A stretch of 32,000 bases of DNA from Megasphaera elsdenii DSM 20460 (GTDB taxonomy: Bacteria > Bacillota > Negativicutes > Veillonellales > Megasphaeraceae): NCBI RefSeq assembly GCF_003010495.1, contig NZ_CP027570.1, positions 1,050,001-1,082,000 of the forward strand. Reading direction: 5' to 3'. Positions 1,218-18,159 of the stretch are shown here, in pieces. The position numbers and the translations under genes were made by a program. Under the pieces are notes generated by a model, which searched no databases, had not been told where the DNA came from, and saw only the letters and a program-made list of their open reading frames with translations. Each line of letters opens with the position of its first letter. Position 1 is the first letter of the stretch.

Positions 1218-1242
1218 GCCCATGACGAGTGATTTGCCGCCA

Positions 1243-1298
1243 CGGATTGCGACCTGCGGCCTGCGGTCTGCGGGCCGCCCTTTGGGCGTCCCCTACAG
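1243..1298 (+). repeat. Heptamer array (cggattg cgacctg cggcctg cggtctg cgggccg) fused to a GC hairpin ending CCCCTACAG
   Basis: 5 units of cgNNctg, then gggccgccc-tttg-ggcgtccc-ctacag. Confidence 0.8.
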
Positions 1299-1393
1299 TG
1301 AACAATATAAAATACGTATCACATTAGCCTGCGGATTGCACAATTTGCATAATCTATTTCTTCTGCTCATTTTATATATGCGTAATAATATGT

Positions 1394-1421
1394 TTGATTC
1401 CTATAAGTTTTGTATTATAAT
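1394..1421 (+). promoter_or_regulatory. Candidate pta promoter
   Basis: TTGATT (1394-1399), 16-nt spacer, TATAAT (1416-1421). RBS aaggag lies about 8 nt before ATG 1505. Confidence 0.45.
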
Positions 1422-1504
1422 GGATGGTAGCGATAGGATATTTTCCTTAGCCTAAGGACATATTCCTAATTATTTTCTAAGAACTTACAAGGAGTGGTAC
1501 CCAA

Positions 1505-2542: not shown

Positions 2543-2556
2543 TTGCTGGCTGAATT

Positions 2557-2594
2557 AAAAAAGGGGCTGTCGCATTAAGCGAACAGCCCCTTTT
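2557..2594 (+). terminator. pta rho-independent terminator (also the group II intron insertion context)
   Basis: A6, stem ggggctgt/acagcccc, T4. The intron GTGCG begins 4 nt after the T-tract. Confidence 0.8.
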
Positions 2595-2598
2595 GTAG

Positions 2599-4496
2599 GT
2601 GCGCCCGGCATGGGCGCACTCTAATGGGTGAAAGTCCCTAAGCCGCCCGGTAGCGGGAAGGCTATAGCCAGAACCAAGGGTGTCCATCGTGAGATGGAAT
2701 CTGAAGGAAGGTCGAGGCAAATCTCTGGTCTGACGAACAGAAATCACATAAGGCTAGTCATGGGGATAAGGCCGCCTAACAGGTTGAAGTCCCATAGCTA
2801 CACGGAACCATGAATAGTAGATGTGGCAGACACATGGAGAGAAAGAGTGCGTTCTTACCCGGGGAGGCCTCATGGACATGATGGTGCCATATAGATTGGA
2901 CATCATGGTTGAAATAAGATTTATCATGAGGAGTCAGCCGAGGCCATAGTACCTTATGGGCTATAGACCATGAGGAAAGGGCCGAATCCTAGGAGATGTT
3001 AGTTAATGAAAGTAACCAATCATGGAATGAAAGACAGAAAACTTCATCAAGAAGGCTGTCCACAAAAAGAGGTTGCGGAACAACCGGGATATGTGGAAGC
3101 GTCTGCCCATGCGAGGATTGCTGAACACAACGACATCATTGCAAGCTTGCCAGCGGACAGTCTGTTGAAGCAGATTTTATCACGAGACAACTTAAATGGT
3201 GCCTATAAGAAGGTAAAGTCTAATCGAGGAACCGGCGGGGTCGACAGGATGAGTGTAGATGAACTTCTACCCTACCTGCGGGAACATCGCCTGGACCTCC
3301 TTCAGCAAATACGGAATGGGAAATATAAGCCCCAGCCAGTCCGTCGGGTTGAAATACCCAAAGAGGAAAAAGGGAAATTCCGGAAATTAGGAATCCCTAC
3401 GGTCGTAGACCGCATGATACAACAGGCGATTACGCAGGTTCTTGTGCCTATCTACGAGCCACAGTTTTCAGATAGCAGTTTCGGGTTCCGTCCCAAACGG
3501 GGCGCCCACGATGCGTTGAAACAATGCCAGGCCTATGCAGATGAGGGCTATGTCTACGTCGTAGACATGGACTTGGAGAAATTTTTCGACAATGTCTGCC
3601 AAAGCAAATTGATAGAAGTTCTGTCAAGGAGCGTAAAAGACGGCCGGGTCATCTCGCTGATACACCAATATCTCCATGCTGGTGTTATCCGGCATGGGAT
3701 GTTCGAACGAAGTGAACAGGGGGTTCCCCAAGGAGGGCCATTGAGTCCGCTCTTGAGTAACATCATGCTGAATGAGCTGGATAAGGAGCTGGAACGGCGC
3801 GGACATAAATTTGTCCGCTATGCAGATGACTGCATGATACTCTGCAAAAGCAGAAGAAGTGCCGAAAGGACCTTGGAAAGCATCACTCGATATATTGAGA
3901 AGAAATTATTTCTCAAGGTGAATCGAAATAAGACGCACGTAGCCCACATCCGCTATGTTAAATATCTGGGATATGGCTTCTACCGAAAGAATGGAAAATG
4001 CCGACTCCGGGTGCATCCGAAATCCATTACTAAGATGAAAGACCGTTTGCGGTTTATATTGAAACGAAGCAATGGAAAAGGAAACGAAGTGAGAGCCCTT
4101 CTATTGAAACGATTCATAAAGGGATGGGTGAATTACTTTAAACTAGCGAATATGAAGGAACTGCTAATTCAAATTGACAGATGGATTCGACGCAAAATAC
4201 GAACCATATACTGGAAACAATGGAAGAAGGTACGGACGAAACACCGGATGATAAGCCAATACGGCGCGCCCAAGTGGGTAGTGTTGGAAATGGCTAACTG
4301 CCGAAAAGGTCCGTGGCGAGCAGCGGCAATGCTGAACTCAGTTCTTACGAATAAAGAAATAGCCCGCCTTGGCTACATAACCATGACGAGCTATTACAAG
4401 CAAGTATGCGAAAACTAGGAAACCGCCGTGTACCGAACGGTACGCACGGTGGTGTGAGAGGTCGGGATTTCTACTCAGAAATCCCTCCTACTCGAT
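2599..4496 (+). mobile_element. Group II intron, bacterial class C-like (~1.9 kb)
   Basis: The 5' end is GTGCG at 2599. The RT/maturase ORF lies inside. Domain V is at 4422-4453 (ccgccgtg tacc gaac ggta CG cacggtgg, CGC triad). Domain VI is at 4455-4494 with bulged A4490. The 3' end ...gAT is at 4496. Insertion is just downstream of a terminator hairpin. Confidence 0.85.
3006..4418 (+). CDS. ltrA: Group II intron reverse transcriptase/maturase (no endonuclease domain evident)
   Basis: 470 aa. RT motifs include GVPQGGPLSPLLSN and FVRYADDCMILC (YADD). A C-terminal maturase X-like region is present (GWVNYF...). Confidence 0.92.
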   Translation: MKVTNHGMKDRKLHQEGCPQKEVAEQPGYVEASAHARIAEHNDIIASLPADSLLKQILSRDNLNGAYKKVKSNRGTGGVDRMSVDELLPYLREHRLDLLQQIRNGKYKPQPVRRVEIPKEEKGKFRKLGIPTVVDRMIQQAITQVLVPIYEPQFSDSSFGFRPKRGAHDALKQCQAYADEGYVYVVDMDLEKFFDNVCQSKLIEVLSRSVKDGRVISLIHQYLHAGVIRHGMFERSEQGVPQGGPLSPLLSNIMLNELDKELERRGHKFVRYADDCMILCKSRRSAERTLESITRYIEKKLFLKVNRNKTHVAHIRYVKYLGYGFYRKNGKCRLRVHPKSITKMKDRLRFILKRSNGKGNEVRALLLKRFIKGWVNYFKLANMKELLIQIDRWIRRKIRTIYWKQWKKVRTKHRMISQYGAPKWVVLEMANCRKGPWRAAAMLNSVLTNKEIARLGYITMTSYYKQVCEN

Positions 4497-4627
4497 TTCG
4501 TTTGGCGTGGTCCGTTTGCCGAAAATTCTCGCAGCTGCAAGAAAAATGATATCTGCATACAGCAGATTGTTAAAAATTTTAAACCTTCACGGCAAACGAG
4601 CCACGACCCACGGCAAACGACGTGAAC
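4497..4627. repeat. Palindromic heptamer-array element with a long spacer
   Basis: The left arm tcgtttg gcgtggt ccgtttg ccgaaaa (4498-4525) is complementary to the right arm ttcacgg caaacga gccacga cccacgg caaacga cgtgaac (4586-4627). The spacer contains ttaaaaattttaaacc. Confidence 0.7.
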
Positions 4628-4630
4628 CAA

Positions 4631-4676
4631 GGGATTGTGCATGATGGCAAAAGCCTTCGTGTGACAATCCCTTTTT
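4631..4676 (+). terminator. Terminator-like hairpin plus T-tract followed by GTAG
   Basis: Stem gggattgt/acaatccc with a large loop, then T5 and gtag. The context ccctttttgtag resembles the pta site ccccttttgtag. Confidence 0.35.
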
Positions 4677-4685
4677 GTAGTGAAA

Positions 4686-4734
4686 GGCGCCCCCTACAGC
4701 GATGAACGATGAACGACCAACGACGAACGATCAT
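4686..4734 (-). repeat. Heptamer array (minus strand: tcgttcg tcgttgg tcgttca tcgttca) plus CTGTAGGGGGCGCC
   Basis: Read on the minus strand, the array starts at the TGA stop of the 4731-5159 gene. It is homologous in layout and unit to 340-390. Confidence 0.8.
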
Positions 4735-5159
4735 TTATACCGTACGCGGCGGTTGCCGACGACCATGGTCGGGCTCAGGGTGCGGTAGACCATGTAGGTG
4801 AAGAACATGAAGCCGAAGAGGAAGACCAAGGCGTATTCGTCTGTGAGCGGGGCGTCTTTGGTGAAGTACCAGGCACAGGCCAGGGTCAGGATGAGGCTGG
4901 CGTACATGGAAATGGTGACGCACCACGTCCGCTGGCCGCGGTCGCGCATCTTATAGAAATCGTGGAATTTGACGTACATGGCGATGGTCCAGGTGACGAG
5001 GACGACAGCCAGTACGATGGGGACGATCAAGGGAAGGGGCAGATATGAGGATACGAGAACGAGGAGCATAAGGGCAAAGGTGCTGAGGAAAATCCCTTCC
5101 TGGCGTTTCAAATCCTGGCTGGAATCATCAGGGACAGCCGGGCGGTTACGACGAGACAT
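4731..5159 (-). CDS. Hypothetical small integral membrane protein (about 4 TM segments)
   Basis: 142 aa with hydrophobic stretches (LSTFALMLLVLVSSYL, IVPIVLAVVLVTWTIAM, etc.). RBS aaagga lies 9 nt upstream. No family recognised. Confidence 0.6.
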   Translation of the reverse strand: MSRRNRPAVPDDSSQDLKRQEGIFLSTFALMLLVLVSSYLPLPLIVPIVLAVVLVTWTIAMYVKFHDFYKMRDRGQRTWCVTISMYASLILTLACAWYFTKDAPLTDEYALVFLFGFMFFTYMVYRTLSPTMVVGNRRVRYK

Positions 5160-5191
5160 GAGTCATCATCCTTTCTATAGCATTATGTCTC

Positions 5192-5219
5192 ATTATAGCA
5201 TAGGTTGACTTTCTTTCAA
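5192..5219 (-). promoter_or_regulatory. Candidate promoter of the 4731-5159 gene
   Basis: On the minus strand: TTGAAA, 16-nt spacer, TATAAT. Confidence 0.45.
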
Positions 5220-5292
5220 CATTATGATAGCGTGAGGAGGTAAGGGCCGCCGTACAAAGGTGTTCGTCATTAACGATGGGACCTTTACTCTC

Positions 5293-5386
5293 TTTGTTTG
5301 ATGTTTGACGTTTGATGTTTGGGAATACGGTTTTTTAATTTAAAACCATTTACATCAAACATCAAACTTTTAACTTCAAACGTAAA
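5293..5386. repeat. Palindromic heptamer-array element
   Basis: Left arm tttgttt gatgttt gacgttt gatgttt. Core ggttttttaatttaaaacc. Right arm acatcaa acatcaa actttta acttcaa acgtaaa. A 16-bp stem with 1 mismatch forms next to the core. Confidence 0.8.
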
Positions 5387-5399
5387 AGGATGTGTGATT

Positions 5400-6788
5400 A
5401 TGCATGCAGTAAAGACATATGATGTCATTATCATCGGGGCTGGTCCGGCCGGTATTTTTACGGCCCTGGAACTGGCCGATAAAGGATTTAAGATTCTCAT
5501 GGTCGAAAAGGGGCAGGACATACGGGAGCGCATTGCGACGAGCCTGAACAAGAAGGCCCTGCCCAAAGACCGGATGCGCAATGTCGTCTGTGGCTGGGGT
5601 GGTGCCGGTGCCTTCAGTGACGGAAAATTGACGCTGACGACGGAATACGGCGGCAACCTCGACGACTACATGTCCAAGGCCGACCTCATGGACAAGATTC
5701 GTTACGTCGATGACGTCTACTGCCGTTTCGGCGGTGCCGGCCGTAAAGTCTATGGCGATGAAAACAAAGACCACATCCGCGACATCAAGCGCAAAGCTGC
5801 CGCAGCGGACCTGCGTTTCATCCCGGCCCGTATCCGCCATCTCGGGACCGACGTCAACGCTCAGATCCTGACTAACATGCGCGATTTCCTGGAAGGGAAA
5901 GTCGACATCATGGCCGATACGGCTGTAGACCATATCGTGGAAGAGAAAGGCGAAATCAAAGGCGTCCTCATCGATGACCAGTTCTATGCCTGCCGTTATC
6001 TGGTCAGTGCTCCCGGCCGGGAAGGGTCGGAATGGTTTGTCCATGAAGTCGAAAAGATGGGCCTCAAACTGACGTCCAATGCCGTCGACATCGGCGTCCG
6101 CGTAGAAATGCCGGCAGAAGTCCTGGAAACGATTACCGACGTCGTCTATGAATCGAAGCTCATCTATTTCAGCAAATCCTTTGACGACCGGATCCGCACG
6201 TTCTGCATGAATCCCTATGGCTTCGTCGTCGAAGAGAATAACGATGGCCTGCTCACGGTCAACGGCCACAGTTATGCCCACAAGAAGAGTGAAAATACGA
6301 ACTTCGCCATCCTCGTCTCCAAGAAGTTCACGGAACCCTTCCATGAACCGATTAAATACGGGAAGTACATCGCCAATCTGGCCAACATCCTCGGCGGCGG
6401 CGTCATCGTCCAGCGCCTGGGCGACTTCCTCGATGGCCGCCGGTCGACGCCGGAACGGATCCAGCGGGGCCTCGTCCGGCCGACCATGCCCGATGCGACA
6501 CCAGGTGATTTATCGCTGGTCCTGCCGTACCGCCATATGCTGGACATCAAGGAAATGCTGGAAGCCCTCGATGCCGTCGCTCCTGGGGCCAACTCGCGCC
6601 ATACCTTGTTGTACGGCGTAGAAGCCAAGTTCTATTCCAACCGCCTGGAATTGAGCCACGTCCTGGAAACGAAGATTCCCAATTTCTTTGCCATCGGCGA
6701 CGGCGCCGGCATCACCCGCGGCCTGGTACAGGCGTCGGCAGCAGGTGTAACTGTCGGTCAGGAAATTTTGCGGCGGGAAGAAACGTAA
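5400..6788 (+). CDS. FAD-dependent protein (uncharacterised NAD(FAD)-utilising dehydrogenase family)
   Basis: A Rossmann motif, YDVIIIGAGPAGIFTALEL, lies at the N-terminus when starting at ATG 5400 (RBS aagga 8 nt upstream). The track's 5319 start only adds translated repeat sequence. Confidence 0.8.
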   Translation: MHAVKTYDVIIIGAGPAGIFTALELADKGFKILMVEKGQDIRERIATSLNKKALPKDRMRNVVCGWGGAGAFSDGKLTLTTEYGGNLDDYMSKADLMDKIRYVDDVYCRFGGAGRKVYGDENKDHIRDIKRKAAAADLRFIPARIRHLGTDVNAQILTNMRDFLEGKVDIMADTAVDHIVEEKGEIKGVLIDDQFYACRYLVSAPGREGSEWFVHEVEKMGLKLTSNAVDIGVRVEMPAEVLETITDVVYESKLIYFSKSFDDRIRTFCMNPYGFVVEENNDGLLTVNGHSYAHKKSENTNFAILVSKKFTEPFHEPIKYGKYIANLANILGGGVIVQRLGDFLDGRRSTPERIQRGLVRPTMPDATPGDLSLVLPYRHMLDIKEMLEALDAVAPGANSRHTLLYGVEAKFYSNRLELSHVLETKIPNFFAIGDGAGITRGLVQASAAGVTVGQEILRREET

Positions 6789-6792
6789 TCTG

Positions 6793-7491
6793 TCATTCTT
6801 TGAACCGGTATCCGGCACCCCAGACGGTCTCGATGTAGATCGGCTTGGCCGGGTCCGGTTCTATTTTTTCGCGGATGCGGTTGATGTGGACCATGACCGT
6901 CGCCGTATCGCCTTCGGCGTCGAGGCCCCAGACGCGTTCGAACAGGCGGTCCCGGCTGAAGACCAGGCCGGGATGCTTGGCCAGAAAGACGAGGAGCTCA
7001 AATTCGCGGTTGGTCAGGGAGATTTCCTGGCCTTTGACGTAGACCCGGTGTTTGTCGACGTAGATTTCCAGGTCGCCGCTGCGGAGGACTTCGCCGTCGG
7101 CCGCTTTCTGCTGGGCCTTTCCCGTCAGCCGTTCGTAGCGCGTGATGTGAGCCTTGACGCGGGCGACGAGCTCTGTCGGGCTGAAGGGCTTGATGATGTA
7201 GTCATCGGCACCGAGGCCGAGGCCGCGTATCTTGTCCATGTCTTCCCTTTTCGCCGATACCATCAGGATGGGGACTTCCTTTTCTTCACGGATGCGGCGG
7301 CAGATGTGGAAGCCATCGGTCCCAGGCAGCATGATATCCAGCAGGATGAGGTCGAAATCCTCCTGTAAAGCCCGTTCCAGCCCTTTCGTCCCGTCCGTTT
7401 CGATGACGCTTTCGATGGCGCTGGCTTCGAGGAAATCCCGTTCCAGTTCAGCAATTTCTATATTATCTTCAATGATCAAGATGCGTTTCAT
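6793..7491 (-). CDS. OmpR-family response regulator
   Basis: 232 aa. Receiver domain (DLILLDIMLPGTDG, ...KPF) plus a winged-helix C-terminus (LTNREFELL...VWG...YRF). Confidence 0.92.
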   Translation of the reverse strand: MKRILIIEDNIEIAELERDFLEASAIESVIETDGTKGLERALQEDFDLILLDIMLPGTDGFHICRRIREEKEVPILMVSAKREDMDKIRGLGLGADDYIIKPFSPTELVARVKAHITRYERLTGKAQQKAADGEVLRSGDLEIYVDKHRVYVKGQEISLTNREFELLVFLAKHPGLVFSRDRLFERVWGLDAEGDTATVMVHINRIREKIEPDPAKPIYIETVWGAGYRFKE

Positions 7492-8968
7492 GATAGGCCT
7501 CCTCTATTTGTGGCAAGGTGATGACGACCGTCAGGCCCCCGCCTGGCGTTTCTTCTGCATGGATCTGGCCGTGCAGGGTCGTAATGATTTGTTTGACAAT
7601 GGCCAGACCCAGACCGCTGCCTTTTTTGACATCCGTCCTGGCAGCATCGGTCCGGTAAAAACTGTCGAATAGGCGGGGCAGGTCGGCTGCCGGGACACCG
7701 GGCCCGTCGTCGGCAACGGTCAGGACGACGGAATGCCCTGTTTCGGCCAGGCGCAGGTCCAGGTTCACTGTAGGGCACTGCTTGTATTTCAATGCATTCT
7801 CCAGCAGATTGTCCAGGACCCGCTGGAACTGCATCCTGTCGATGGCTGTCCGGGCCGGCCCGGATGGCGGCGTGTAATGCAGGATGAGGCCCCGCTCGGC
7901 CAGGCGGGCTGTATTTTCAGCGGTGAAGTCGGCGAAATAATCGCGCAGTGAAACTGGTTCCATGGTAAAGGAAACCTGGCCTAAGTCGAGCTTGGAAAAG
8001 AGGAACAGCCTGTCGACGAGTTTTTCCAGGGTGCAGGCGTTCTGGTAGATGAGTTCGACATAATGATGGCGCTTTTCGGCGGTTTTGGCGATGCCGACCA
8101 GTATCCCGCTGGCATAGCCTTTGAGCAGGGTCAGCGGCGTCGACAGGTCATGGGAAATGCCGGCGATGAGTTCCTTGCGGTTCTGCTCATACTTTTCCTG
8201 GGCCAGGCGGGCCGAGCGCAGCTGGCGGCGCATGTGGTCGAAGGCTTCGCAGGTCCGGCCGAGCTCATCGCGCGATGACAGGGTGAGTTCATAGTCGAGG
8301 TTGCCTTTTTCGATTTCGGCTGCCGCCGTCCGCAGTGCCGCCAAAGGCGTCAGTATCTGACGGGACAGGACGCGGGACACGATGAGGCCACAGGCAATGA
8401 TGATGGCACTGGCTGTGCCGACGATGAAGAGGAGCAGGGTCTGGATGACGCTTTTGGCCATGCCTTCACGGATGCCGCTCTTGGCGATGAACGGCGTGTT
8501 GCCGGCAGCGATGACCGTTGTCCCGCTGTGGGGGGACGTATAGCGGAAGAAGAAGCCGTCGCCGTCCCAGGTCATGACCGTCTGCTGGCCATGGGCCTTC
8601 CACAAGACCCGGTCGGCCAGGCTGCGGAAGTCGATGCCCGGCGTGACATAAGCGACCTGGTCGTTGCGGATGATGGCCGTGGCAATGCCCAGCTCCTCCA
8701 GGACCTGGCAGTCTTCACGCATATCCTTGACCTTTAACGGCCCGGGCCGTTCGGCTTTGACGCGCAGGGAACTGACCGTATATTGGATGGACAGGGCCGG
8801 CCCTTTTTCCGGCCACAACGTCGTCAAGTCATTGTGAGGCGAAGAGAAACGGAGACCCGAGATGAGCAGGAAACCCAGGACCGTCAAGATGGCGATGGGA
8901 ACAAAGACCATCGTGAAATTGGCAACGAGCAGGCGGTGCCGCAGTGAAATGTCACGTATACGCAGCAT
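7469..8968 (-). CDS. Sensor histidine kinase (2 TM, HAMP, HisKA, HATPase_c)
   Basis: 499 aa. H-box ISHDLSTPLT, N/G boxes (LDNLLENALKY, DDGPGV, GSGLGLAIV). Overlaps the downstream regulator gene by 23 nt. Confidence 0.92.
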   Translation of the reverse strand: MLRIRDISLRHRLLVANFTMVFVPIAILTVLGFLLISGLRFSSPHNDLTTLWPEKGPALSIQYTVSSLRVKAERPGPLKVKDMREDCQVLEELGIATAIIRNDQVAYVTPGIDFRSLADRVLWKAHGQQTVMTWDGDGFFFRYTSPHSGTTVIAAGNTPFIAKSGIREGMAKSVIQTLLLFIVGTASAIIIACGLIVSRVLSRQILTPLAALRTAAAEIEKGNLDYELTLSSRDELGRTCEAFDHMRRQLRSARLAQEKYEQNRKELIAGISHDLSTPLTLLKGYASGILVGIAKTAEKRHHYVELIYQNACTLEKLVDRLFLFSKLDLGQVSFTMEPVSLRDYFADFTAENTARLAERGLILHYTPPSGPARTAIDRMQFQRVLDNLLENALKYKQCPTVNLDLRLAETGHSVVLTVADDGPGVPAADLPRLFDSFYRTDAARTDVKKGSGLGLAIVKQIITTLHGQIHAEETPGGGLTVVITLPQIEEAYHETHLDH

Positions 8969-9012
8969 AAGCAGGACATCCTTTCATAGTGATAGTTTTA
9001 TTATAGAGTGAT

Positions 9013-9095
9013 TCGTGGCTAGTGGCTAGTAGTTCGTGGCTCGTGGTTAAATTTAAAACCATCCGCTAACCACTAACTGCTAGCCCCTAACCACT
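9013..9095. repeat. Palindromic heptamer-array element
   Basis: Left arm tcgtggc tagtggc tagtagt tcgtggc tcgtggt. Core taaatttaaaa. Right arm ccatccg ctaacca ctaactg ctagccc ctaacca (about 70-75% complementary, unit by unit). Confidence 0.8.
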
Positions 9096-9096
9096 T

Positions 9097-9130
9097 AAAA
9101 GGGCTTGTCGCACGTGCGACAAGCCCTTTT
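9097..9130. terminator. Bidirectional rho-independent terminator (serves the 9141-9857 gene)
   Basis: aaaa, then the perfect 26-nt palindrome gggcttgtcgcacgtgcgacaagccc, then tttt. Confidence 0.85.
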
Positions 9131-9140
9131 GAAAGGAGGC

Positions 9141-9857
9141 CTATTCTTCTATTTCTGTATGGATGACGGAGCCGTTGGTGGCGTCTACTAAGACGTCGTA
9201 GCGGACGGAACCCGATGTGACGCGGACTTTATACATGGGGTGGAAAGCGCGTTGCGGCATAGCGCCCTGCGGCATAGCGCCCTGCGGCGGCTGGCCTTTC
9301 ATGTCAGGCTGGCCCTGGGGCGGTGCCATGGGGGGGACGCCTTGTGTATCGGCCTGGCCATTCGGAGCGGCTTTGGCCGTAGCCCCGGCAGCGGCATCGG
9401 TTTTTTCTTCACCCGGACGGCCGGGCTTCATGCCTTCCGGTCCCTGCGGGCGTCCTGCTTCATGGTCTTTGCGGTCTCTCTCTTTTACTTTGTCTTTGCG
9501 GTCGCCTTTGCGGCCGTCTTTAGGACCGTGCTTGGCGCTATTCATATCGAAGAGGGCCACTTCTTTGAAATCCAGGTCGCTTTCGTCCTTGCCGATGGCC
9601 TGGGCTGCGGCGGCACAGGCTTGGTCTTCGCTGATGAGGGAGACGTTGCGTTGTTCGGCCTGGGCTTTGGTCATCTGGGCCATGGCTTCGACCCGTTCGG
9701 CGTGACGGGCTGTGTGCTGGCGGTACAGGTAGTAGTGGCCGCCTGCCGTCGCCAGTACGCAGACGACGCAGAAAGCAGCGGCGATTTTGGCATTGCGGGC
9801 CGTGCGGACTTTATGTTTGATCGAAATGAGTGTATCTTGCCATTTTTCCTGGGTCAT
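9141..9857 (-). CDS. Membrane-anchored PepSY-like protein with a low-complexity Pro/Gly/Lys-rich linker
   Basis: 238 aa. N-terminal TM (IAAAFCVVCVLATAGG). The C-terminus YKVRVTSGSVRYDVLVDATNGSVIH is PepSY-like. RBS aggagg. Confidence 0.65.
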   Translation of the reverse strand: MTQEKWQDTLISIKHKVRTARNAKIAAAFCVVCVLATAGGHYYLYRQHTARHAERVEAMAQMTKAQAEQRNVSLISEDQACAAAAQAIGKDESDLDFKEVALFDMNSAKHGPKDGRKGDRKDKVKERDRKDHEAGRPQGPEGMKPGRPGEEKTDAAAGATAKAAPNGQADTQGVPPMAPPQGQPDMKGQPPQGAMPQGAMPQRAFHPMYKVRVTSGSVRYDVLVDATNGSVIHTEIEE

Positions 9858-9971
9858 GATAAATTCCTCCTGTCTTCAATCACTGATTCTTGACTACGAA
9901 GACAGTATAAGGGATAAATCTAAAATCGAGCTAAACCAGGCCGTAAGAATTACATAAATGTTGTATAATGA

Positions 9972-10050
9972 GTTTGTAGTTTGTAGTTTGTAGTTTGTAG
10001 TTTGTAGTTTGTAGTTTGCAGGCTGTAGGGGCGCCCATGTGGGGCGCCCG
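9972..10050 (+). repeat. Heptamer array (gtttgta x6 perfect, then gtttgca, ggctgta) fused to a GGGGCGCCC hairpin
   Basis: 49 nt with exact period 7, then ctgtaggggcgccc-atgt-ggggcgccc. Confidence 0.9.
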
Positions 10051-10094
10051 CCGAGTCCGCCATGTTTTATATAATAGAGAGTGAGGTATCGATC

Positions 10095-11132
10095 ATGAAC
10101 GATGAACGTTTGAAATTGACTCAAATGGCGTCCTGCTCCGGTTGAGGCGCTAAGTTAGGGCCAGGGACACTGGCTCAATTGTTGGACGGGCTTCCAACAC
10201 ATAAAGATGACCGCCTCCTCGTTGGCTATGATAAGAGCGACGACGCGTCGGTCTACCAGGTGAGCGATGATCTGGCTGTCGTCCAAACGGTCGATTTCTT
10301 TCCGCCTATCGTCGACGATCCTTATTTATTCGGTCAGATTGCAGCGGCCAATGCCCTGAGCGACGTCTACGCCATGGGGGCCGAGGCGAAACTGGCCATG
10401 AACATCATGTGCGTCAATTTGTCCATGGGCCGCGAAGCCATCCGGGCTATCCTCGAAGGGGGATACCAAAAGGCCTATGAAGGCGGGGTCATCATCACCG
10501 GCGGCCATACCATCGAAGATAAGGAGCCGAAGTACGGCCTGTCCGTGACCGGTTTCGTTCATCCGCAGAAATTATTGCGCAATTCGTCGGCCCGGCCTGG
10601 CGACGTCCTCATCCTGACCAAGCCCTTAGGCGTGGGTATCTTGATGACAGCTGCCCAGGGCGATTTCGTCGAAGCGCCGCTCCTGCAGCAGCTCTATGAC
10701 CAGATGGCCCAGCTCAATAAGACGGCCCGGGACATCATGGTCCGCTATGACGTCCACAGCTGTACCGACGTTACGGGCTTCGGCCTGTTGGGCCATGCCT
10801 GTGAAATGGCCGATGGCAGCGGGACGACGATTCATTTTCAAGGCGATGCCATTCCCTATCATAAAGAGGCCCTGGACATGGCGGCCATGGGGCTGATCCC
10901 GGCCGGAGCGTACCGCAACCGTGATTTCGTCGCCGGCCGGATTGATACGGGCAGCGCCGATAAGCGCTTCATGGATGTCCTCTATGACCCACAGACTTCG
11001 GGCGGCCTGCTCATCGCTGTCGCCGAAAAAGACGCAGCGAAGCTGGAACGGGCCCTGAAAGACACGATTCCCTGTGCGGCCGTCGTCGGCTATGTGACCG
11101 GGCGGGAGAACTACTCCATCGTCATCGATTGA
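10095..11132 (+). CDS. selD: Selenide, water dikinase (selenophosphate synthetase), selenocysteine-containing form
   Basis: ATG 10095 gives MNDERLKLTQMASCSG-U(TGA 10143-10145)-GAKLGPGTLAQLL, continuing in frame into the 10179 ORF. The SGUGAK position corresponds to the catalytic Cys/Sec of SelD. The rest (DDASVY...VDFF...DDPYLFGQIAAANALSDVYAMG) is canonical SelD. Confidence 0.9.
10158..10176 (+). promoter_or_regulatory. Candidate bacterial SECIS hairpin for the selD UGA
   Basis: Stem gggccag/ctggctc (one G-U pair) with apical loop ggaca. The loop starts 20 nt after the UGA. Confidence 0.5.
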
Positions 11133-11187
11133 ATCTCTTACGCTTATAGTAGCGGGAGAGATTGGAGAACATTGCTGTTTAAAGACA

Positions 11188-11232
11188 TAGCGATGGATTT
11201 CACAGGTATCGAACCTGCAAAATCCATCGCTA
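11188..11232. terminator. Bidirectional terminator hairpin between selD and the LysR gene
   Basis: Perfect 13-bp stem tagcgatggattt/aaatccatcgcta with a 19-nt loop. Confidence 0.6.
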
Positions 11233-11235
11233 TAC

Positions 11236-12201
11236 TTATTTTATGGCGGTTAATTCTTCAATGTTCATAGATTCAATCTTTTTACCATATTGTAATAACA
11301 AATCCTTGAAATATAGACAAGCCTTAGATAAATAGCGATCTTTATGGTAGATAACCTGAAGATTTTGAACGAAAGGAGTACCTTTTACAATTAACGGAAA
11401 GGCGTTGACTGGCTCAGTAAAATTTTCTTTCTGGTTAATGAGACTGGCGCGGGTTGCAAAAAATGCGGCGACACCGCTGGCCCCGACTGCCGTAGCGATT
11501 TGTATATACTGGCTGGTCATATAGGTAATGGGAGTAATGCCTGCATCTTTAAAGATGTTTTGAATGGTTTCGCCAAGACGGTTCTGTAAAATGCAGAATG
11601 GCAATTGGGCAAAATCAGCCAGGTTTGCGCCTTGGAGAGACTTCTTTTTGATTTTTTCGCTATCCTCGTGAAATGTTTTTTTCAGGAGACTATCGGTGAT
11701 GCAAAGATATACCTGGTCCCGCATCATGTGTTGTTTGACGAGGTTCGGATTTTCTGATTGAGATAAAGCAATGGCCAGATCTAAATCGCCATCCAGAACG
11801 AGTTTTTCCAAAACGGTTGTCGTCGCTTCTTTTAATTCAAGTTCAATCAGCGGGTATTTGGTGGTGAAAATTGGTAATATATAAGGCAGGCAGGCGTTTG
11901 AACGTAAAATACTGGCTCCAAAATAAATGAGGCCTCGCTTTGAATGTTTTATGTCAGCCAGGATGTCTTGTAAGTTTTCATTTTCCCGGATTAATTGCTG
12001 TGCATAACGAAGTACAAATGACCCGGCATAGGTAAGGGAAAGTTTGGGGTGCCGATTAAGTAGTTTAACACCGTAGTATTCCTCTAAACGAATAATGTGG
12101 TTGCTCAATGTTTGCTGAGAGATGTGGATGCGTTCAGCTGTGCGGGTTATATGTAGATCTTTAGCTAATTCTGCAAAATAGTACAGACTGTCTATGTTCA
12201 T
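11236..12201 (-). CDS. LysR-family transcriptional regulator
   Basis: N-terminal HTH (MNIDSLYYFAELAKDLHITRTAERIHISQQTLSNHI) plus a LysR substrate-binding domain. ATG 12201 is preferred over 12210 because GGAG lies 9 nt upstream. Confidence 0.9.
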   Translation of the reverse strand: MNIDSLYYFAELAKDLHITRTAERIHISQQTLSNHIIRLEEYYGVKLLNRHPKLSLTYAGSFVLRYAQQLIRENENLQDILADIKHSKRGLIYFGASILRSNACLPYILPIFTTKYPLIELELKEATTTVLEKLVLDGDLDLAIALSQSENPNLVKQHMMRDQVYLCITDSLLKKTFHEDSEKIKKKSLQGANLADFAQLPFCILQNRLGETIQNIFKDAGITPITYMTSQYIQIATAVGASGVAAFFATRASLINQKENFTEPVNAFPLIVKGTPFVQNLQVIYHKDRYLSKACLYFKDLLLQYGKKIESMNIEELTAIK

Positions 12202-12215
12202 GGATATCATCTCCG

Positions 12216-12234
12216 TTACAAAAATATTTTGTAA
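12216..12234. promoter_or_regulatory. LTTR-box-like dyad, copy 1
   Basis: TTACAAAA-ATA-TTTTGTAA (ACA-N9-TGT geometry), centred about 65 nt upstream of the predicted start site of the 12255-12283 promoter, in the lysR-divergent region. Confidence 0.6.
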
Positions 12235-12254
12235 AAAATAATAAATTTAATAGT

Positions 12255-12283
12255 TTTACTTGTGGAAAGTTTTGAAATATAAT
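12255..12283 (+). promoter_or_regulatory. Promoter of island operon 1
   Basis: TTTACT, 17-nt spacer, TATAAT. Both hexamers are conserved in the duplicate at 16898-16926. Confidence 0.55.
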
Positions 12284-12357
12284 CTAGTTGTAAGCAAGAG
12301 AACAGGAAATACAAAATATGAACTGATTATACTAATTCATCAAAGGAGAGATTCATT

Positions 12358-13386
12358 ATGGCATGGAAAATTTTATTACCTCAGGAAATCATGGAAGAAG
12401 GAGCGCAGTTGTTGAAAGATGCTGGCCATACACTGATCCGTGGCAGAGGTTTTGAAACAGCGGACGTCTTGGCAGATATGAAGGAATATAAACCGGATGC
12501 GATGATCGTACGTATTACCCCGATTACCCGCGAAGTCATTGAAGCGAATCCGAATCTGAAAGTTATTGCCCGTCACGGTGCCGGCTTTGATGCATTGGAT
12601 GTCAAAGCTTGCCATGATAATGGGGTACAGACTTTATATGCTCCTGTAGCGAACAGTACCTCTGTTGCTGAAACAGCCATCATGCTTATGTTTGAATGTA
12701 GCCGCAATGTCTTGAAACTGCGTAAGACCTGGGTTCAAGACTATTATAAAGCAAAACTGAAGATTCACAAAACAACTCTTAATGGCAAGACCTTAGGCAT
12801 CATTGGTTGTGGCAATATCGGCAGCCGTGTAGCAAAGCGGGCTTTAGGGCTGGAAATGAACGTCTTGGCATACGACCCGTATAAACGGGCAGCTGAATTT
12901 CCGGAAGGTGTCGAAGTCGTACGCGACTTGAACCGGATTTTTAAGGAAAGTGATTATGTATCTGTGCATACGCCGAATACGCCGCTTACCCGTCAGATGA
13001 TTAACAAGGAAACACTGGCTATGATGAAATCTTCAGCCTTCCTGATTAACACGGCTCGTGGCGCTTGTGTCAATGAAATGGATTTGTATCAGGCCTGCAA
13101 AAATGGAATTATCGCAGGCGCCGGACTCGACGCTATTGCCCATGAACCAGTTGATCCTAACAATCCACTGCTGACATTGGATAATGTCATCATTTATCCG
13201 CACATCGGCGGTAACTCTGTGGAAGCGGCCCACCGGGCTTCGTACTTCTCTGCGATGGGCATCGAAGAAGTATATGAAGGCAAAGAACCGACCTGGCCGA
13301 TTCATGATATTGATTATACGACAGCACCGACATACATGGATATCCGTGTTCCCGATAAGAAACCGGTCGGCATGTTTGATTTTTAA
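12358..13386 (+). CDS. D-isomer-specific 2-hydroxyacid dehydrogenase, copy 1
   Basis: 342 aa. GIIGCGNIGSRVA NAD-binding motif. Catalytic Arg/Glu/His context NTARG ... AHEP ... YPHIGG. Confidence 0.88.
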   Translation: MAWKILLPQEIMEEGAQLLKDAGHTLIRGRGFETADVLADMKEYKPDAMIVRITPITREVIEANPNLKVIARHGAGFDALDVKACHDNGVQTLYAPVANSTSVAETAIMLMFECSRNVLKLRKTWVQDYYKAKLKIHKTTLNGKTLGIIGCGNIGSRVAKRALGLEMNVLAYDPYKRAAEFPEGVEVVRDLNRIFKESDYVSVHTPNTPLTRQMINKETLAMMKSSAFLINTARGACVNEMDLYQACKNGIIAGAGLDAIAHEPVDPNNPLLTLDNVIIYPHIGGNSVEAAHRASYFSAMGIEEVYEGKEPTWPIHDIDYTTAPTYMDIRVPDKKPVGMFDF

Positions 13387-13420
13387 TAGAGACGATTAAT
13401 TTCAGAAATGAGGATATATC

Positions 13421-14833
13421 ATGGATAAAGTACGATTGTTAAAAATAGCAGCTATTGCAGCTGTCATGATAGGCATATGGAATGGTCCTGTGCCGACAGG
13501 GTTGGAAGCCGAAACATGGCATATTGTTGCTTTGTATCTTGGATTGTTGATGGGGCTGGTATTCCGGCCCTTCTCGGAACCGGTTGTCACGTTGATCATC
13601 GTTGGTCTGGCTTCGATGTTTATGAAAAGCTCGATTCTCCTGCGCGGCTATGGCAATGATATGGCTTGGTTCATCGCTACGGTTACTATCGTTTGTACAG
13701 CGTTCATCAAGACCGGGTTGGGAAAACGAATTGCTTATAATTTGCTGATCCGGGCTGGTAACTCTACATTGGGGCTGGGATATATCATGGTCATCACAGA
13801 CTTGCTCTTGAGTCCGGCAACTGGCTCTAATTCTTCACGTACCAGCATTATTTATCCGATTTTTCAGAATATTGCCCAAGGCATCGGCTCGACAGCTGAA
13901 AAAGCACCGCGCAAATTGGGAGCGTTCCTTGAAGTTTTGATGTATGCCAGCTCGCAAACAACATCGGCCCTGTTCCTTACGGGGATGGCTACTAACGCTA
14001 TTACTGTAGCTCTTATGAGCGAAATGCTTGGTATCAATATGACCTGGGGAACCTGGGTACTGGCTTCAGCCGTTCCTGTTGGCTTGATCCTTTTACTAGC
14101 GCCGCTTGTTATCTATAAAATTTACCCACCGGAAATGAAATCTCTTTCCGAAGTGAAACCGTTGGCTCTTAAAGGATTGCAGGAATTAGGTCCCATGTCA
14201 ACAGCTGAAAAAACGTTGTTAGGCCTCTTTATCCTGGCTATCCTTGGATGGATGTTTGGTCCGATGATTCCGTTTGTTAACTTGAAGATGCAGTATGTAG
14301 GTTTTGTCTTCTTGGCCCTGGTCCTGATTACTAAAGTCCTGGACTGGAATGATGTTATCGCTGCTAAAGGGGCTTGGAATATCTTTATCTGGTATGGCGC
14401 CTTCTATGGTATTGCCGCTTCCCTTTCTTCTGCTGGTTTTTACACCTGGCTGGCTGATTATATTGGTGGCATCATTGACTTGTCCGTATATAGCGGTATG
14501 ACCGTTACAGCTGTTCTTGTATTCGTCAGCCTGGCTGTTCGTTATTTCTTCGTATCGAATAGTGCGTTTGTTGCCTCTTTTTACCCAGTATTGTTCATCC
14601 TGACCCTGGGAACTCAGGCAAACCCGATGGTTGTTGGACTGCTGCTCGCTTTCTGCTCGCCCCTGGGTGCTCTTCTCACGCATTATGGCAATGGTGCCGG
14701 TTTGATTACCTTTGCCTCTGGTTATGTACCGCAGAAAGATTTCTGGCGGGTTGGCACGACGATGGTGGCTATGTCCTTGGTTATTTTGTTCGGCATTGGT
14801 GTACCGTATTGGAAACTGGTTGGTCTGTGGTAG
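13421..14833 (+). CDS. DASS-family (divalent anion:Na+ symporter-like) di/tricarboxylate permease
   Basis: 470 aa and polytopic. SPATGSNSSRTSIIYPI and HYGNGAG are hairpin-type motifs typical of DASS/CitT-like carriers. Confidence 0.75.
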   Translation: MDKVRLLKIAAIAAVMIGIWNGPVPTGLEAETWHIVALYLGLLMGLVFRPFSEPVVTLIIVGLASMFMKSSILLRGYGNDMAWFIATVTIVCTAFIKTGLGKRIAYNLLIRAGNSTLGLGYIMVITDLLLSPATGSNSSRTSIIYPIFQNIAQGIGSTAEKAPRKLGAFLEVLMYASSQTTSALFLTGMATNAITVALMSEMLGINMTWGTWVLASAVPVGLILLLAPLVIYKIYPPEMKSLSEVKPLALKGLQELGPMSTAEKTLLGLFILAILGWMFGPMIPFVNLKMQYVGFVFLALVLITKVLDWNDVIAAKGAWNIFIWYGAFYGIAASLSSAGFYTWLADYIGGIIDLSVYSGMTVTAVLVFVSLAVRYFFVSNSAFVASFYPVLFILTLGTQANPMVVGLLLAFCSPLGALLTHYGNGAGLITFASGYVPQKDFWRVGTTMVAMSLVILFGIGVPYWKLVGLW

Positions 14834-14848
14834 AAAGGATGAAAATCT

Positions 14849-15997
14849 ATGTTGGATTATTTGATTACGAATGGACATGTCATCGACCCGGCTAATGGGG
14901 TAGATGAAGTTAAAGATATTGCAGTATATAATGGCAAGATTACGCGTTACGAAAAAGGCGAAGAAGCTAAACATGTGATTGATGCTCAGGGGCGATATGT
15001 ATTTCCCGGTTTAATTGACTCCCATGCCCATATGTTTGCTGAAGGTACGGAAATTGGGATTTATCCAGATTTAGCCTATTTGCCGACCGGTGTAACCGCC
15101 GCCGTAGATGCCTCCTGTGGCGTAGCGAATTACAATTTATTTCGCAAGACTATTATTGCCCGTAGTAAAGTAACGATTAAGAGCTTTTTGCAAGTTTGTT
15201 CTGCTGGCTTGGTCACGACAAGCTATCATGAAAATATCAATCCTAAATATTTCAATCCTGAAAAAATGGATCGCATTTACCATGAAAATGAAGATAATAT
15301 ATTAGGTCTGAAAATCCGGCAAAGCGAAGAACTGGCTCAGGGTTTGGGAATTGAACCGTTGAAAGAGACCGTCCGCATTGCGAATAAAATTGGCTGCCCT
15401 GTAGAGGTCCATTGTACGAATATTCCGGTCCCGACGAAAGAAGTATTAGATGTACTTCGTCCCGGTGATATTTTTGAACACGTCTACCAAGGAGCTAAAA
15501 ATACAATTCTTGATGATAATGGAAAGCTCTATGACTGTGTCATAGAAGCCAGGAAACGAGGTATTATCTTCGATACTGCTGAAGGCCGCAAACATGGTGA
15601 CTTCACGATTATGAGGAAAGCTATGGAACAAGGATTCATCGCGGATATGTGCAGTACGGACCTGGTTCTCGGCAGCATGTACAGACGTTCTATTTTTTCC
15701 CTTCCTAATCTGATGTCCCGTTATATTTGCATGGGCATCCCGATGCAGAAAGTCGTAGAAATGTCGACAGCTCGCCCGGCTAAACTGATGAAGATGGAAG
15801 GTGTTATCGGTTGCCTTTCTGAAGGAGCCCATGCAGATATTGCTATCTTTGACTGGATAGATTTGCATCAAACTTATTTAGATTGGAAAGGTGAAAAATT
15901 TGTTGGCACGAAGCAGTTGAAGCCAGAGATGACCATCAAAGATGGACAGATTGTATATTGTGCGCCTGATTACATCTACGAACCAGATCGTAAATAA
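14849..15997 (+). CDS. Amidohydrolase-superfamily metallohydrolase (dihydroorotase-like fold, substrate unknown)
   Basis: 382 aa. The N-terminal beta-sandwich leads into an HxH motif (PGLIDSHAHMF), with later His/Asp ligand contexts (VEVHCTN, CSTDLV). Confidence 0.8.
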   Translation: MLDYLITNGHVIDPANGVDEVKDIAVYNGKITRYEKGEEAKHVIDAQGRYVFPGLIDSHAHMFAEGTEIGIYPDLAYLPTGVTAAVDASCGVANYNLFRKTIIARSKVTIKSFLQVCSAGLVTTSYHENINPKYFNPEKMDRIYHENEDNILGLKIRQSEELAQGLGIEPLKETVRIANKIGCPVEVHCTNIPVPTKEVLDVLRPGDIFEHVYQGAKNTILDDNGKLYDCVIEARKRGIIFDTAEGRKHGDFTIMRKAMEQGFIADMCSTDLVLGSMYRRSIFSLPNLMSRYICMGIPMQKVVEMSTARPAKLMKMEGVIGCLSEGAHADIAIFDWIDLHQTYLDWKGEKFVGTKQLKPEMTIKDGQIVYCAPDYIYEPDRK

Positions 15998-16058
15998 GAA
16001 ATCAATTCCGCATATTTAGAAAATATAATCAATTATTGGTATATAGGAGGAACTCATC

Positions 16059-16748
16059 ATGTGTGTAGGTTTTCGTATTTTCACTAAAATCAATCGTCCT
16101 GAAAAAGAACTCATAGAAGCATTCAAAGGACTTCCGGCAGCCAATGTTGCCGATGTTATGAGCCGTTTCTTCTGTGTGAATTCGGCGATTAAATCGTTCA
16201 ATAACAAACCGTTGCTGGGGACTGCTTTTACTGTTCGTGCCCGCATTGGTGATAACTTATTACTGCATAAAGCCATCGCAATGGCTCAGCCAGGCGACGT
16301 TATCATCGTTGATGGCGATGGTGATATCTCCAATGCCTTTTGTGGCGATATCATGATGACGGAATGCCAGTCTTTGGGTATTGCTGGGGTCATCATTGAT
16401 GGCGCCGTACGCGATAAAGCTGATCTGGAAAAACTGGATATGCCCGTTTATGCTCGTGGCGTCATGCCGAAAGGTCCCTTCAAAGATGGACCGGGTGAAA
16501 TCAATGTGCCCATTTCCTGTGGTGGTGTTGTCGTAAACCCCGGTGATATTGTCATTGGTGACGCTGATGGTGTCGTCATTGTGCCACCTAAACAGGCTAA
16601 GGAAATCGCCGCTAAAGCGTGGAAGAAGCATGAGACTGAAGCAGCTAGTCTGGAACAAATTGCGAATGGCCGACGTGATAAATCCTGGGTTGATAAAGCC
16701 CTGGAAGCTAAAGGCTGTGAAATTATTGATGACTACTACCGTGCCTAA
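16059..16748 (+). CDS. RraA-fold protein (4-hydroxy-4-methyl-2-oxoglutarate aldolase / oxaloacetate decarboxylase family)
   Basis: 229 aa. GDNLLLHKAI...PGDVIIVDG...FCGDIMMTECQSLGIAGVIIDGAVRD...PGDIVIGDADGVVIVP are typical RraA/HMG-aldolase motifs. Confidence 0.85.
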   Translation: MCVGFRIFTKINRPEKELIEAFKGLPAANVADVMSRFFCVNSAIKSFNNKPLLGTAFTVRARIGDNLLLHKAIAMAQPGDVIIVDGDGDISNAFCGDIMMTECQSLGIAGVIIDGAVRDKADLEKLDMPVYARGVMPKGPFKDGPGEINVPISCGGVVVNPGDIVIGDADGVVIVPPKQAKEIAAKAWKKHETEAASLEQIANGRRDKSWVDKALEAKGCEIIDDYYRA

Positions 16749-16773
16749 CCGTAATCTATACAACGGATGATAC

Positions 16774-16817
16774 AAAAATACCGATGAGTAACATGATGTT
16801 GCTTGTCGGTATTTTTG
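16774..16817 (+). terminator. Terminator of island operon 1
   Basis: A-tract, stem ataccga/tcggtat (extendable with mismatches), T5. Confidence 0.6.
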
Positions 16818-16858
16818 TTTATGTTGTTCATGGAAATATAAAATTAGAAAACACGTGC

Positions 16859-16877
16859 TCACAAAAATATTTTGTAA
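16859..16877. promoter_or_regulatory. LTTR-box-like dyad, copy 2
   Basis: TCACAAAA-ATA-TTTTGTAA, at the same distance (-65) from the second promoter. Confidence 0.55.
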
Positions 16878-16897
16878 AAAATAATAAAATTCATAGT

Positions 16898-16926
16898 TTT
16901 ACTTGTATATGATTTTAAAATATAAT
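16898..16926 (+). promoter_or_regulatory. Promoter of island operon 2
   Basis: TTTACT, 17-nt spacer, TATAAT. Confidence 0.55.
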
Positions 16927-17000
16927 GTAGTTGTAAACAAAAGACATGATATACATTACATATAATTATTACAATTGATTTATAAAAGGAGAGACGCATT

Positions 17001-18029: not shown

Positions 18030-18159
18030 TAGGCAATCCTAACATTATTTTTATGAACGGGATTGAAAGTAAGGCCGAGGACAACCGCCTTTTTTCAACA
18101 GAACGTGAAGGAGAATTCCTGCAGAATGATGGAATTGTCCTGGAGAGGAGTGCATCATT

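Follow-up and report, generated by a model that had tools for sequence, protein, structure and literature searches.

A hypervariable heptanucleotide repeat joined to a REP-like hairpin upstream of selD in Megasphaera elsdenii

Introduction

Does a perfect tandem repeat in front of a bacterial gene serve to set the expression of that gene, or can it be repetitive DNA that happens to lie there? The region upstream of selD, the selenophosphate synthetase gene of Megasphaera elsdenii DSM 20460, raises this question: six identical GTTTGTA units, two decayed units and a GC hairpin follow one another shortly before the start codon. We analysed it within a stretch of 32,000 nucleotides of contig NZ_CP027570.1 (the window, whose numbering is used below unless another locus is named). 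A preliminary description of this DNA had read the array as a contingency locus, in which the gain or loss of one unit by slippage would displace promoter elements by 7 bp. Here we report that the array varies in length between strains, that it belongs to a family of similar arrays and that it begins where the conserved sequence upstream of selD ends. In our view the array is probably a hypermutable heptanucleotide repeat in the leader of selD, attached to a REP-like (repetitive extragenic palindromic) hairpin and of little or no importance for regulation.

Results

Unit number varies between loci with near-identical flanks

The expectation that the tract is prone to slippage was borne out by comparing 22 conspecific locus copies with near-identical flanks, the window and L105 included (collected loci carry L numbers). 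Three loci came from protein look-up, and 16 more from metagenome contigs that were scanned for exact matches to the left junction. One GTTTGTA unit is present in L084, L088, L090 and L096, five units in L085, L087, L091 and L093, six in the window, L081, L083, L086, L089, L092, L094, L095 and L105, seven in L097 and L099, and eight in L082. Among the loci found by protein look-up two have six units, the third being the isolate L082; assemblies of isolates thus differ, with eight units in GCA_900113775.1 (L082) and six in GCA_050315055.1 and HE576794.1. The leader of selD differs in length by up to 49 nt among M. elsdenii strains. In the sister species (L004, L098) a single unit stands before the same hairpin.

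Over a locus of 6.7 kb, L082 shows no substitution against the window, a gap of 14 nt being the sole difference; the right flanks of L093 (five units) and L099 (seven units) are identical; and the one-unit alleles are interspersed among multi-unit ones, forming no single group by flanking single-nucleotide polymorphisms. Because of these three observations we conclude that the tract mutates repeatedly and much faster than point substitution occurs.

Two low-coverage metagenome contigs continue into unrelated sequence, L089 over its last 144 nt, diverging inside the hairpin, and L090 just after the hairpin. The sequence beyond these junctions was sought in all loci collected, with no match. Both are probably chimeric assemblies across dispersed hairpin copies, the other possibility being rearrangements at the hairpin.

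The array lies downstream of a conserved, probable -10 box

The position of the array was examined in an intergenic alignment of ten M. elsdenii-group loci whose SelD proteins are 88-94% identical. From TTCTTGACTACGA to GTATAATG the columns are nearly all invariant or at least 90% conserved in the ten sequences. This conservation extends without a break to TATAATG (9964-9970), is lost from the following base onwards and is regained only at the ribosome-binding site. TAGTATAAT is retained in the M. massiliensis group as well, and in more distant Megasphaera a GATATAAT box stands some 60 nt upstream of selD. We infer that the -10 box of selD is the TATAAT at 9964-9969 and that transcription would start at about 9975-9978, inside the first repeat unit. 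Since conservation ends right after TATAATG, the array would lie in the transcribed leader, downstream of the likely -10 box and not between promoter elements, so that the 7-bp promoter displacement previously proposed does not apply: a change of unit number alters the length of the leader and not the spacing of the promoter. The array does lie upstream of selD between two TATAAT boxes, as had been described, the second (10070-10075) having neither a -35 element nor a TG extension; a good -35 match was found for neither box.

A switch acting through the leader RNA was also considered. Neither an intrinsic terminator nor an attenuator was found in the selD leader, where the U run starts 15 nt after the stem. 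Leaders folded in silico with 0-12 units gave no predicted on/off change, the unpaired fraction of the Shine-Dalgarno and AUG region drifting only slightly. Searched against Rfam at gathering thresholds, the whole window returned tRNAs and the group II intron only, and a permissive scan of 9850-10260 gave two chance-level matches (E ~1) and no known RNA family. Thus, of the contingency-locus proposal, the slippage-prone and variable tract stands, while the promoter spacer, the link to selD in particular (see below) and a switch of the ribosome-binding site, as far as it can be predicted, do not. A quantitative effect of unit number on selD expression is possible.

Sequence anatomy of the array, the hairpin and selD

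The array had been described correctly as six perfect units followed by GTTTGCA, GGCTGTA and the GC hairpin, and as the most regular of the window: Tandem Repeats Finder reports 9971-10018 with period 7, 6.9 copies, 100% matches and a score of 96, the highest of all window arrays. Allowing up to three mismatches, (GTTTGTA)3 has six matches in the window, all inside this array, against 0.00 expected from 100 dinucleotide-preserving shuffles. The two decayed units are retained even in one-unit alleles; the L096 allele has lost GTTTGCA. Coordinates of this and the other elements are collected in Table 1.

The hairpin consists of GTAG (10025-10028), a stem arm GGGCGCCC (10029-10036), the 5-nt loop ATGTG (10037-10041) and the second arm GGGCGCCC (10042-10049). 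Its stem of 8 bp, all GC, is the sole feature common to the minimum-free-energy and centroid folds of the leader. The hairpin recurs in the sister species (L004, L098), where it shows wobble or decay changes. As had been noted, 45 nt separate its end from the selD ATG, and the interval 10050-10094 is identical across all alleles of the window leader type. An upstream ATG (10062) shares the reading frame of selD, and a start there would lengthen the protein by 11 residues. Such use is improbable, since this ATG lacks a ribosome-binding site and other leader types do not conserve it.

The selD gene itself encodes a selenoprotein, codon 17 being a selenocysteine TGA (10143-10145). This TGA is retained in Megasphaera orthologues, with the exception of L016, which has TGC (Cys). 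A stable hairpin, GGGCCAGGGACACUGGCUC, about 14 nt 3' of the UGA (10143-10200 region), is a candidate selenocysteine insertion sequence (SECIS) element. The closest SelD relatives are from an uncultured Megasphaera (94%) and from M. elsdenii and M. intestinihominis (91%). Divergently from selD lies a gene for a 238-aa protein (start 9857, minus strand), after which comes an operon for a histidine kinase and a response regulator; downstream of selD most strains have an adenylosuccinate-lyase-like gene, a class-V aminotransferase gene, a thioredoxin gene, selB and selA. The minus-strand open reading frame over the array (9894-10124; NYKLQTTNYKLQ, the TNYKLQ frame) exists and was rightly held to be spurious; we rejected it as coding sequence because the length differences between strains, in steps of 7 nt, shift its frame.

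Table 1. Positions of the selD leader features and of other repeat elements in the window
Feature	Position	Strand	Remarks
Cross-species conserved block between the 238-aa gene and selD	9880-9970	+	Ends with TATAAT 9964-9969, likely selD promoter P1
Six perfect GTTTGTA units	9972-10013	+	Direct reading; equals (GTAGTTT)n in register with the hairpin GTAG tag; hypervariable part
Two decayed units, GTTTGCA (10014-10020) and GGCTGTA (10021-10027)	10014-10027	+	Direct reading
GC hairpin with unpaired 5' GTAG tag	10025-10049	+	GTAG-type REP architecture
Remaining selD leader	10050-10094	+	Second TATAAT 10070-10075; ribosome-binding site GAGG 10083-10086
selD, selenophosphate synthetase	10095-11132	+	AIRS and AIRS_C domains; in-frame TGA 10143-10145
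Array GTAGTTC GTTCGTC GTTTATC x2 GTTCGCC GTTCATC, ATAG-tagged hairpin, inverted GTAG hairpin	329-449	+	Head-to-head dimer (378-449)
GTTGTTA/GTGGCTA array 1138-1175; CTGCGGY array 1243-1278; GTAG hairpin 1272-1296(-)	1138-1296	+	Family members
Decayed GTAGGGGGCGCC tag and TCGTTCA-type array	4680-4735	-	Invariant in 4 other contigs
Form H: GTTTGAT arms, core GGTTTTTTAATTTAAAACC	5285-5395	+	Long hairpin, z = -5.0
Form H: GTGGCTA/GTAGTTC arms, core GGTTAAATTTAAAACC	9005-9095	+	z = -5.9; adjoins terminator-like hairpin
GTAG palindrome 21062-21094; GTAG hairpin 21181-21205(-), then on that strand (GTGGYYC)6 array 21204-21247	21062-21256	.	
Form H: GTTTGTA-like arms, core GGAATTTAAATTAAAAAAC	26750-26830	+	Adjoins terminator-like hairpin after selA

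A family of period-7 arrays in intergenic DNA

The array is not specific to selD, since the window holds eight or nine arrays of period 7 and most of the others tested are variable as well. A scan by period found eight arrays of period 7 and a single one of period 12, whereas periods 4-6 and 8-11 were not represented; a ninth period-7 array (26756-26824) was found apart from the scan. Extending the sample by 17 kb of flanking genome, to about 49 kb, added three more arrays of period 7 and none of periods 5, 6, 8, 9 or 10, which gives about 12 arrays, or approximately one per 4 kb. Under a stricter threshold five period-7 arrays were counted in the window (32 kb) and two in other M. elsdenii-group loci (35 kb), none in other Megasphaera and Veillonellaceae (123 kb) and three in other Firmicutes (340 kb). 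All nine window arrays are intergenic, while intergenic DNA makes up 11.4% of the window (p ~3e-9). They occupy eight of the 18 intergenic regions regardless of the neighbour (a tRNA cluster, the intron flank, the histidine kinase gene, selD, the aminotransferase gene, the 3' end of selA), and stand after stop codons, beside terminators and before unrelated genes; a preference for surface, restriction-modification or uptake genes was not seen in the window. The units vary between arrays within the pattern G-T-[TGA]-[GTC]-N-T-[CA]; units resembling GTTTGTA reappear at 26756 as well as in L105 and the L001 allele. Taken together, these sequences suggest a family that is specific to the M. elsdenii group, intergenic and all of period 7.

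Five of the six other arrays covered by further contigs are polymorphic in length, some of them with losses of 7, 14 or 35 nt, so that hypervariability is a property of the family and not of selD. The 1138-1175 array is one GTGGCTA unit shorter in L086, the 5285-5395 element is 35 nt (five units) shorter in L093 and L094, and the 9005-9095 element is 14 nt shorter in L089. The (GTGGYYC)n array that immediately precedes the selenium-cluster gene for the class-V aminotransferase (ATG 21270) has 3, 5, 6 or 8 units according to the strain, and its unit sequences differ between strains too; the elements of 21062-21256 have orthologous copies in L017 and L033. For the two extra arrays of L105, the anchors of orthologues in L103 and L104 were not found. 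We also considered the arrays as marks of a selenium-gene regulon, and dropped this idea because they stand at many unrelated intergenic sites.

The family takes two forms. In form G the array adjoins a GC hairpin with an unpaired GTAG, as at selD, 329-405, 21181-21256(-), 4680-4735(-) and L105 1385-1420. At this last site, in HE576794.1, 1385-1457 reads GTGGTTC GTGGCTC GTAGGGGCTCTCGC and continues into a perfect five-fold ACTAGCC array beside the end of a second group II intron copy. Form H has two roughly complementary heptamer arms around an AT-rich palindromic core (GGTTTTAAATTTAAAACC-like), often followed by a terminator-like hairpin of the pattern AAAAGGSnnGTC...GACnnSCCTTTT, and folds as a long hairpin with predicted z scores of -5 to -6; further copies outside the window lie at L001 1095-1215 and L103 ~16440-16560. 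Tagged hairpins resembling that of selD occur at 425-449(-), 1272-1296(-), 21062-21086(+) and 21181-21205(-). Those at 425-449 and 21062-21086 have no array, and the one at 1272-1296(-) has none on its GTAG side, the CTGCGGY array (1243-1278) adjoining its other end. In total, the window holds five clean and two decayed tagged hairpins, compared with 0.66 in shuffles, the sixth match of the scan being the 5' end of the group II intron. The other window copies have 9-bp stems and 3-nt loops. The selD hairpin is a sequence variant, with no match to the consensus of these copies within three mismatches.

Array register and the changing selD leader site

In four of the five form-G arrays the units begin GT[AGT][GC] in phase with the GTAG of the hairpin; the array at 4691 does not fit, and the sample is small. 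The in-phase strings are (GTAGTTT)6 GCAGGCT GTAGGGG at selD, (GTGGYYC)6 GTAGGGG, GTAGTTC ... GTTCATC ATAGGGG and GTGGTTC GTGGCTC GTAGGGG, where the first seven bases of the hairpin resemble a final unit of each array that has diverged. Such a register is consistent with slippage initiated by GTAG microhomology at a spacing of 7 nt, and it could also point to a process specific to REPs.

The site right after the -10 box is occupied differently across the species group. Form G is present in the window and L004, form H with GTTTGTA arms in L001, L002 and L017, only a decayed CTGTAGGGCGAG in L003 and L033, and the L003 type plus form H with GTTCRTC arms in L103 and L104. As judged from these four configurations, the selD leader site is a hotspot for array and hairpin elements.

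Surrounding genome

HE576794.1 (GCA_000283495.2, 2.47 Mb), which we take to be the M. elsdenii DSM 20460 genome, agrees with window 1-12544 without a mismatch and with one 2-nt indel. This indel sits exactly at the 3' edge (4497) of a group II intron at 2599-4496 (Rfam D1-D4; reverse transcriptase/maturase frame 3006-4418), which is also present in HE576794.1 and absent from five conspecific contigs. The second intron copy lies about 9 kb upstream in HE576794.1.

The selD gene of the window (10006-11125) is 92-95% identical to conspecific contigs despite flanks of 98-99%, and 96% identical to L001; about 78 differences in 1100 nt of selD compare with 0-8 in the 815 nt upstream. Such a contrast points to recombination, possibly with the breakpoint close to the leader or to the start of selD. 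After selD lies an island of 8.5 kb, 11133-19655 (11126-19655), with 43.7% GC compared with 54.2% elsewhere and no heptamer arrays. It carries genes for a LysR protein, two 2-hydroxyacid dehydrogenases (one a 99% duplicate over 300 nt), a Na/sulfate-type symporter, an amidohydrolase, an RraA-like protein and a transporter of the major facilitator superfamily (MFS). The island is absent from most conspecific metagenome contigs and from the sister species, where position 19656 follows selD immediately.

A solitary IS605-family TnpB gene (28081-29307, minus strand; OrfB_IS605 and Cas12f1-like TNB domains) has flanking hairpins of its own. To the left of this gene L102 has other DNA, with a DNA polymerase III alpha gene in place of LacI/selA, which indicates a rearrangement breakpoint at the TnpB element. 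A link between this element and the arrays was considered and rejected, its hairpins being unlike the GTAGGGGC hairpins.

Discussion

We propose that the GTTTGTA run would have expanded on the GTAG side of a REP-like GC hairpin within the transcribed leader of selD, the composite of array and hairpin representing one copy of an intergenic family of the M. elsdenii group in which a period-7 array is joined to a GTAG hairpin or to an AT-rich core. The number of units would shift by slipped-strand mispairing in replication, far faster than point substitution, and each step would lengthen or shorten the 5' untranslated region (UTR) of selD by 7 nt, leaving the promoter and the ribosome-binding site untouched. 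Slippage as the mechanism is what we infer from these comparisons, together with a small or nil effect on selD.

Several points weigh against this reading. The distribution of alleles is bimodal, with one unit or with five to eight and none with two to four, which could reflect selection on length, and by analogy with the hmw tracts of Haemophilus influenzae a tuning effect is possible. If the TATAAT at 10070-10075 were the working promoter, the array would lie upstream of it and could act through an upstream element or the phasing of an activator. Some of the six-unit records may be one strain sequenced repeatedly, so that the alleles are not all independent. Finally, most alleles come from short-read metagenome assemblies, and assemblers can miscount repeats; the tracts are shorter than a read, and isolate genomes differ too.

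The best of the alternatives is a true contingency or tuning locus in which the length of the tract sets the level of selD transcript or its translation in steps of 7 nt, as at hmw1A and hmw2A. It would give the population heritable, reversible variation in selenium-use capacity. The tract is perfect, varies at the level of strains, lies between promoter and start codon and has the bimodal distribution just mentioned; a second variable array stands just before the aminotransferase gene of the same selenium cluster, and there are precedents in hmw1A and hmw2A, in a tract before a TonB-dependent receptor gene (PMC2651432) and in the uspA2 repeats (PMC4679880). Against it, arrays of the same family recur about every 4 kb, including sites behind stop codons and next to terminators, and the majority of those tested vary, which makes the variability generic. 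Furthermore, selD has a housekeeping role in biosynthesis rather than one at the surface or in host interaction; in sister lineages the site is without an array or holds elements of quite another kind; and no change at the ribosome-binding site is predicted. We therefore regard a tuning locus as unlikely, although it deserves to be kept in mind.

An RNA-binding platform is far less probable. The leader would read (UAGUUUG)n and then a stable hairpin, so that UAG-N4 occurs seven times with the spacing of sites for HutP-type ring proteins, which also resembles that of TRAP sites, and the binding of such a protein would control selD through the hairpin; HutP recognises UAG triplets spaced by 4 nt. 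However, the hairpin is not followed by a terminator, one-unit alleles are common, orthologous leaders have no repeat and sister arrays are built of units without UAG, such as GTGGCTC and GTTCATC. In addition, a HutP- or TRAP-like gene was not found in the window, and Rfam gave no match. Iteron-type binding, in which the LysR protein, the neighbouring OmpR-type response regulator or another transcription factor would occupy the array, is hardly credible either: tandem direct repeats do stand beside the divergent two-component operon and a LysR gene, but a 7-bp period is out of helical phase, the copy number runs from 1 to 8 and is not conserved, close species that keep the regulators have no repeat, the LysR gene is on the island that most strains lack and the array lies downstream of the conserved -10 box. 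That the tract is fixed and its length differences are artefacts of assembly or sequencing is similarly implausible, since, even though some of the short-read contigs have very low coverage and L089 and L090 look chimeric, the tracts measure only 7-62 nt, every difference is an exact multiple of 7 with clean flanks, isolate assemblies disagree and the same allele recurs across independent samples.

A more speculative reading, which we think improbable but worth stating, is that the heptamer arrays are not ordinary microsatellites but the iterated recognition tag of a REP (GTAG plus 3 nt), produced by a process tied to the hairpin. This process could be repeated cleavage and rejoining by a REP-associated tyrosine transposase (RAYT), or fork stalling induced by the hairpin with slippage of 7 nt. 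Among those window frames that were scanned with Pfam, which were not all of them, there was no RAYT (Y1 transposase) gene, no search directed at RAYT having been made, and in the literature nothing relevant was found on RAYT in Negativicutes. If tags are iterated in this way, the exclusive period of 7 would be accounted for, the leader of selD would rank among the youngest and most active copies, and M. elsdenii would offer a natural system in which to watch heptanucleotide arrays being born at REPs.

The locus illustrates that a perfect repeat before a gene need not be a dedicated switch; here it is probably generic hypermutable repeat DNA in a leader. The differences of leader length could nevertheless contribute to the selenoprotein capacity of individual strains of this rumen and gut probiotic bacterium. 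The arrays are usable as variable-number tandem repeat (VNTR) markers for typing M. elsdenii strains. The M. elsdenii group seems to carry a dense intergenic period-7 family, of which our literature search found no published description: it returned no report of such arrays in Negativicutes and no paper joining Megasphaera, tandem repeat and intergenic. The dominance of heptamers among long bacterial repeats is an old open question, and many young polymorphic arrays at a defined hairpin, in an organism that can be cultured, would make it testable; the interest of the system comes mainly from the link, at the level of the family, between arrays and GTAG tags.

Comparison with known systems places the tract more precisely. 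Upstream heptamer tracts modulate the expression of hmw1A and hmw2A in H. influenzae (Dawid et al. 1999, as cited in PMC2651432), and an AACAACC tract of 1-7 units lies 13 bp upstream of a TonB-dependent receptor gene (PMC2651432). The selD tract resembles both in being a perfect 7-nt tandem repeat in the interval from promoter region to start codon, with slippage presumed and unit number variable between strains (1-7 at the TonB-receptor gene, 1-8 at selD). Unlike it, the Haemophilus tracts are isolated, stand at surface or uptake genes and, for hmw, have a demonstrated effect on expression, whereas the selD tract is one of many period-7 arrays at unrelated sites, precedes the gene of a housekeeping selenium enzyme and is not known to affect expression. 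In Moraxella catarrhalis, AGAT repeats in the 5' UTR of uspA2 have an optimum copy number established by experiment, according to the account in PMC4679880; there too a tandem repeat of strain-dependent copy number lies within a transcribed leader, but the unit is a tetranucleotide and the gene encodes a surface protein.

The hairpins recall the GTAG-tagged REPs, which have a GTAG tag, a GC stem of 6-13 bp and a short loop, are extragenic and form head-to-head dimers (Di Nocera et al. 2013, PMC3733652). The elements of M. elsdenii share with these REPs, and with bacterial interspersed mosaic elements (BIMEs) and REP doublets forming hairpins (REPINs), the unpaired GTAG directly 5' of the stem, the multicopy extragenic occurrence, the dimer at 378-449 and the tolerance of G-T pairs. 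REPs, in contrast, have not been described with the tag iterated as a heptamer array, and the selD hairpin departs from them in its 5-nt loop and in that each arm (GGGCGCCC) is itself palindromic. The text of the 2013 survey makes no mention of Firmicutes (PMC3733652).

A further parallel lies in the long simple sequence repeats (SSRs) of bacteria, with units of 5-11 nt and heptamers predominating (Mrazek et al. 2007, as summarised in PMC4679880). By the same summary, in many bacteria the long SSRs are most often heptanucleotide tracts, polymerase slippage being the proposed cause. Genome-wide families of intergenic heptamers are known from cyanobacterial arrays, from Beggiatoaceae (TAACTGA) and from Xanthomonas and Nostoc (GGGNATC) (PMC4692102), and as heptanucleotide elements in Geobacter (PMC2700814). 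Like these, the arrays of M. elsdenii form a lineage-restricted excess of intergenic tandem heptamers of variable copy number, many of them near start or stop codons and probably transcribed. They differ in that the known families mostly have one unit each, whereas here the units change from array to array, in being joined to GTAG-tagged hairpins or to an AT-rich palindromic core, and in their host. The selD tract thus joins a known kind of heptanucleotide repeat, now in a Negativicute.

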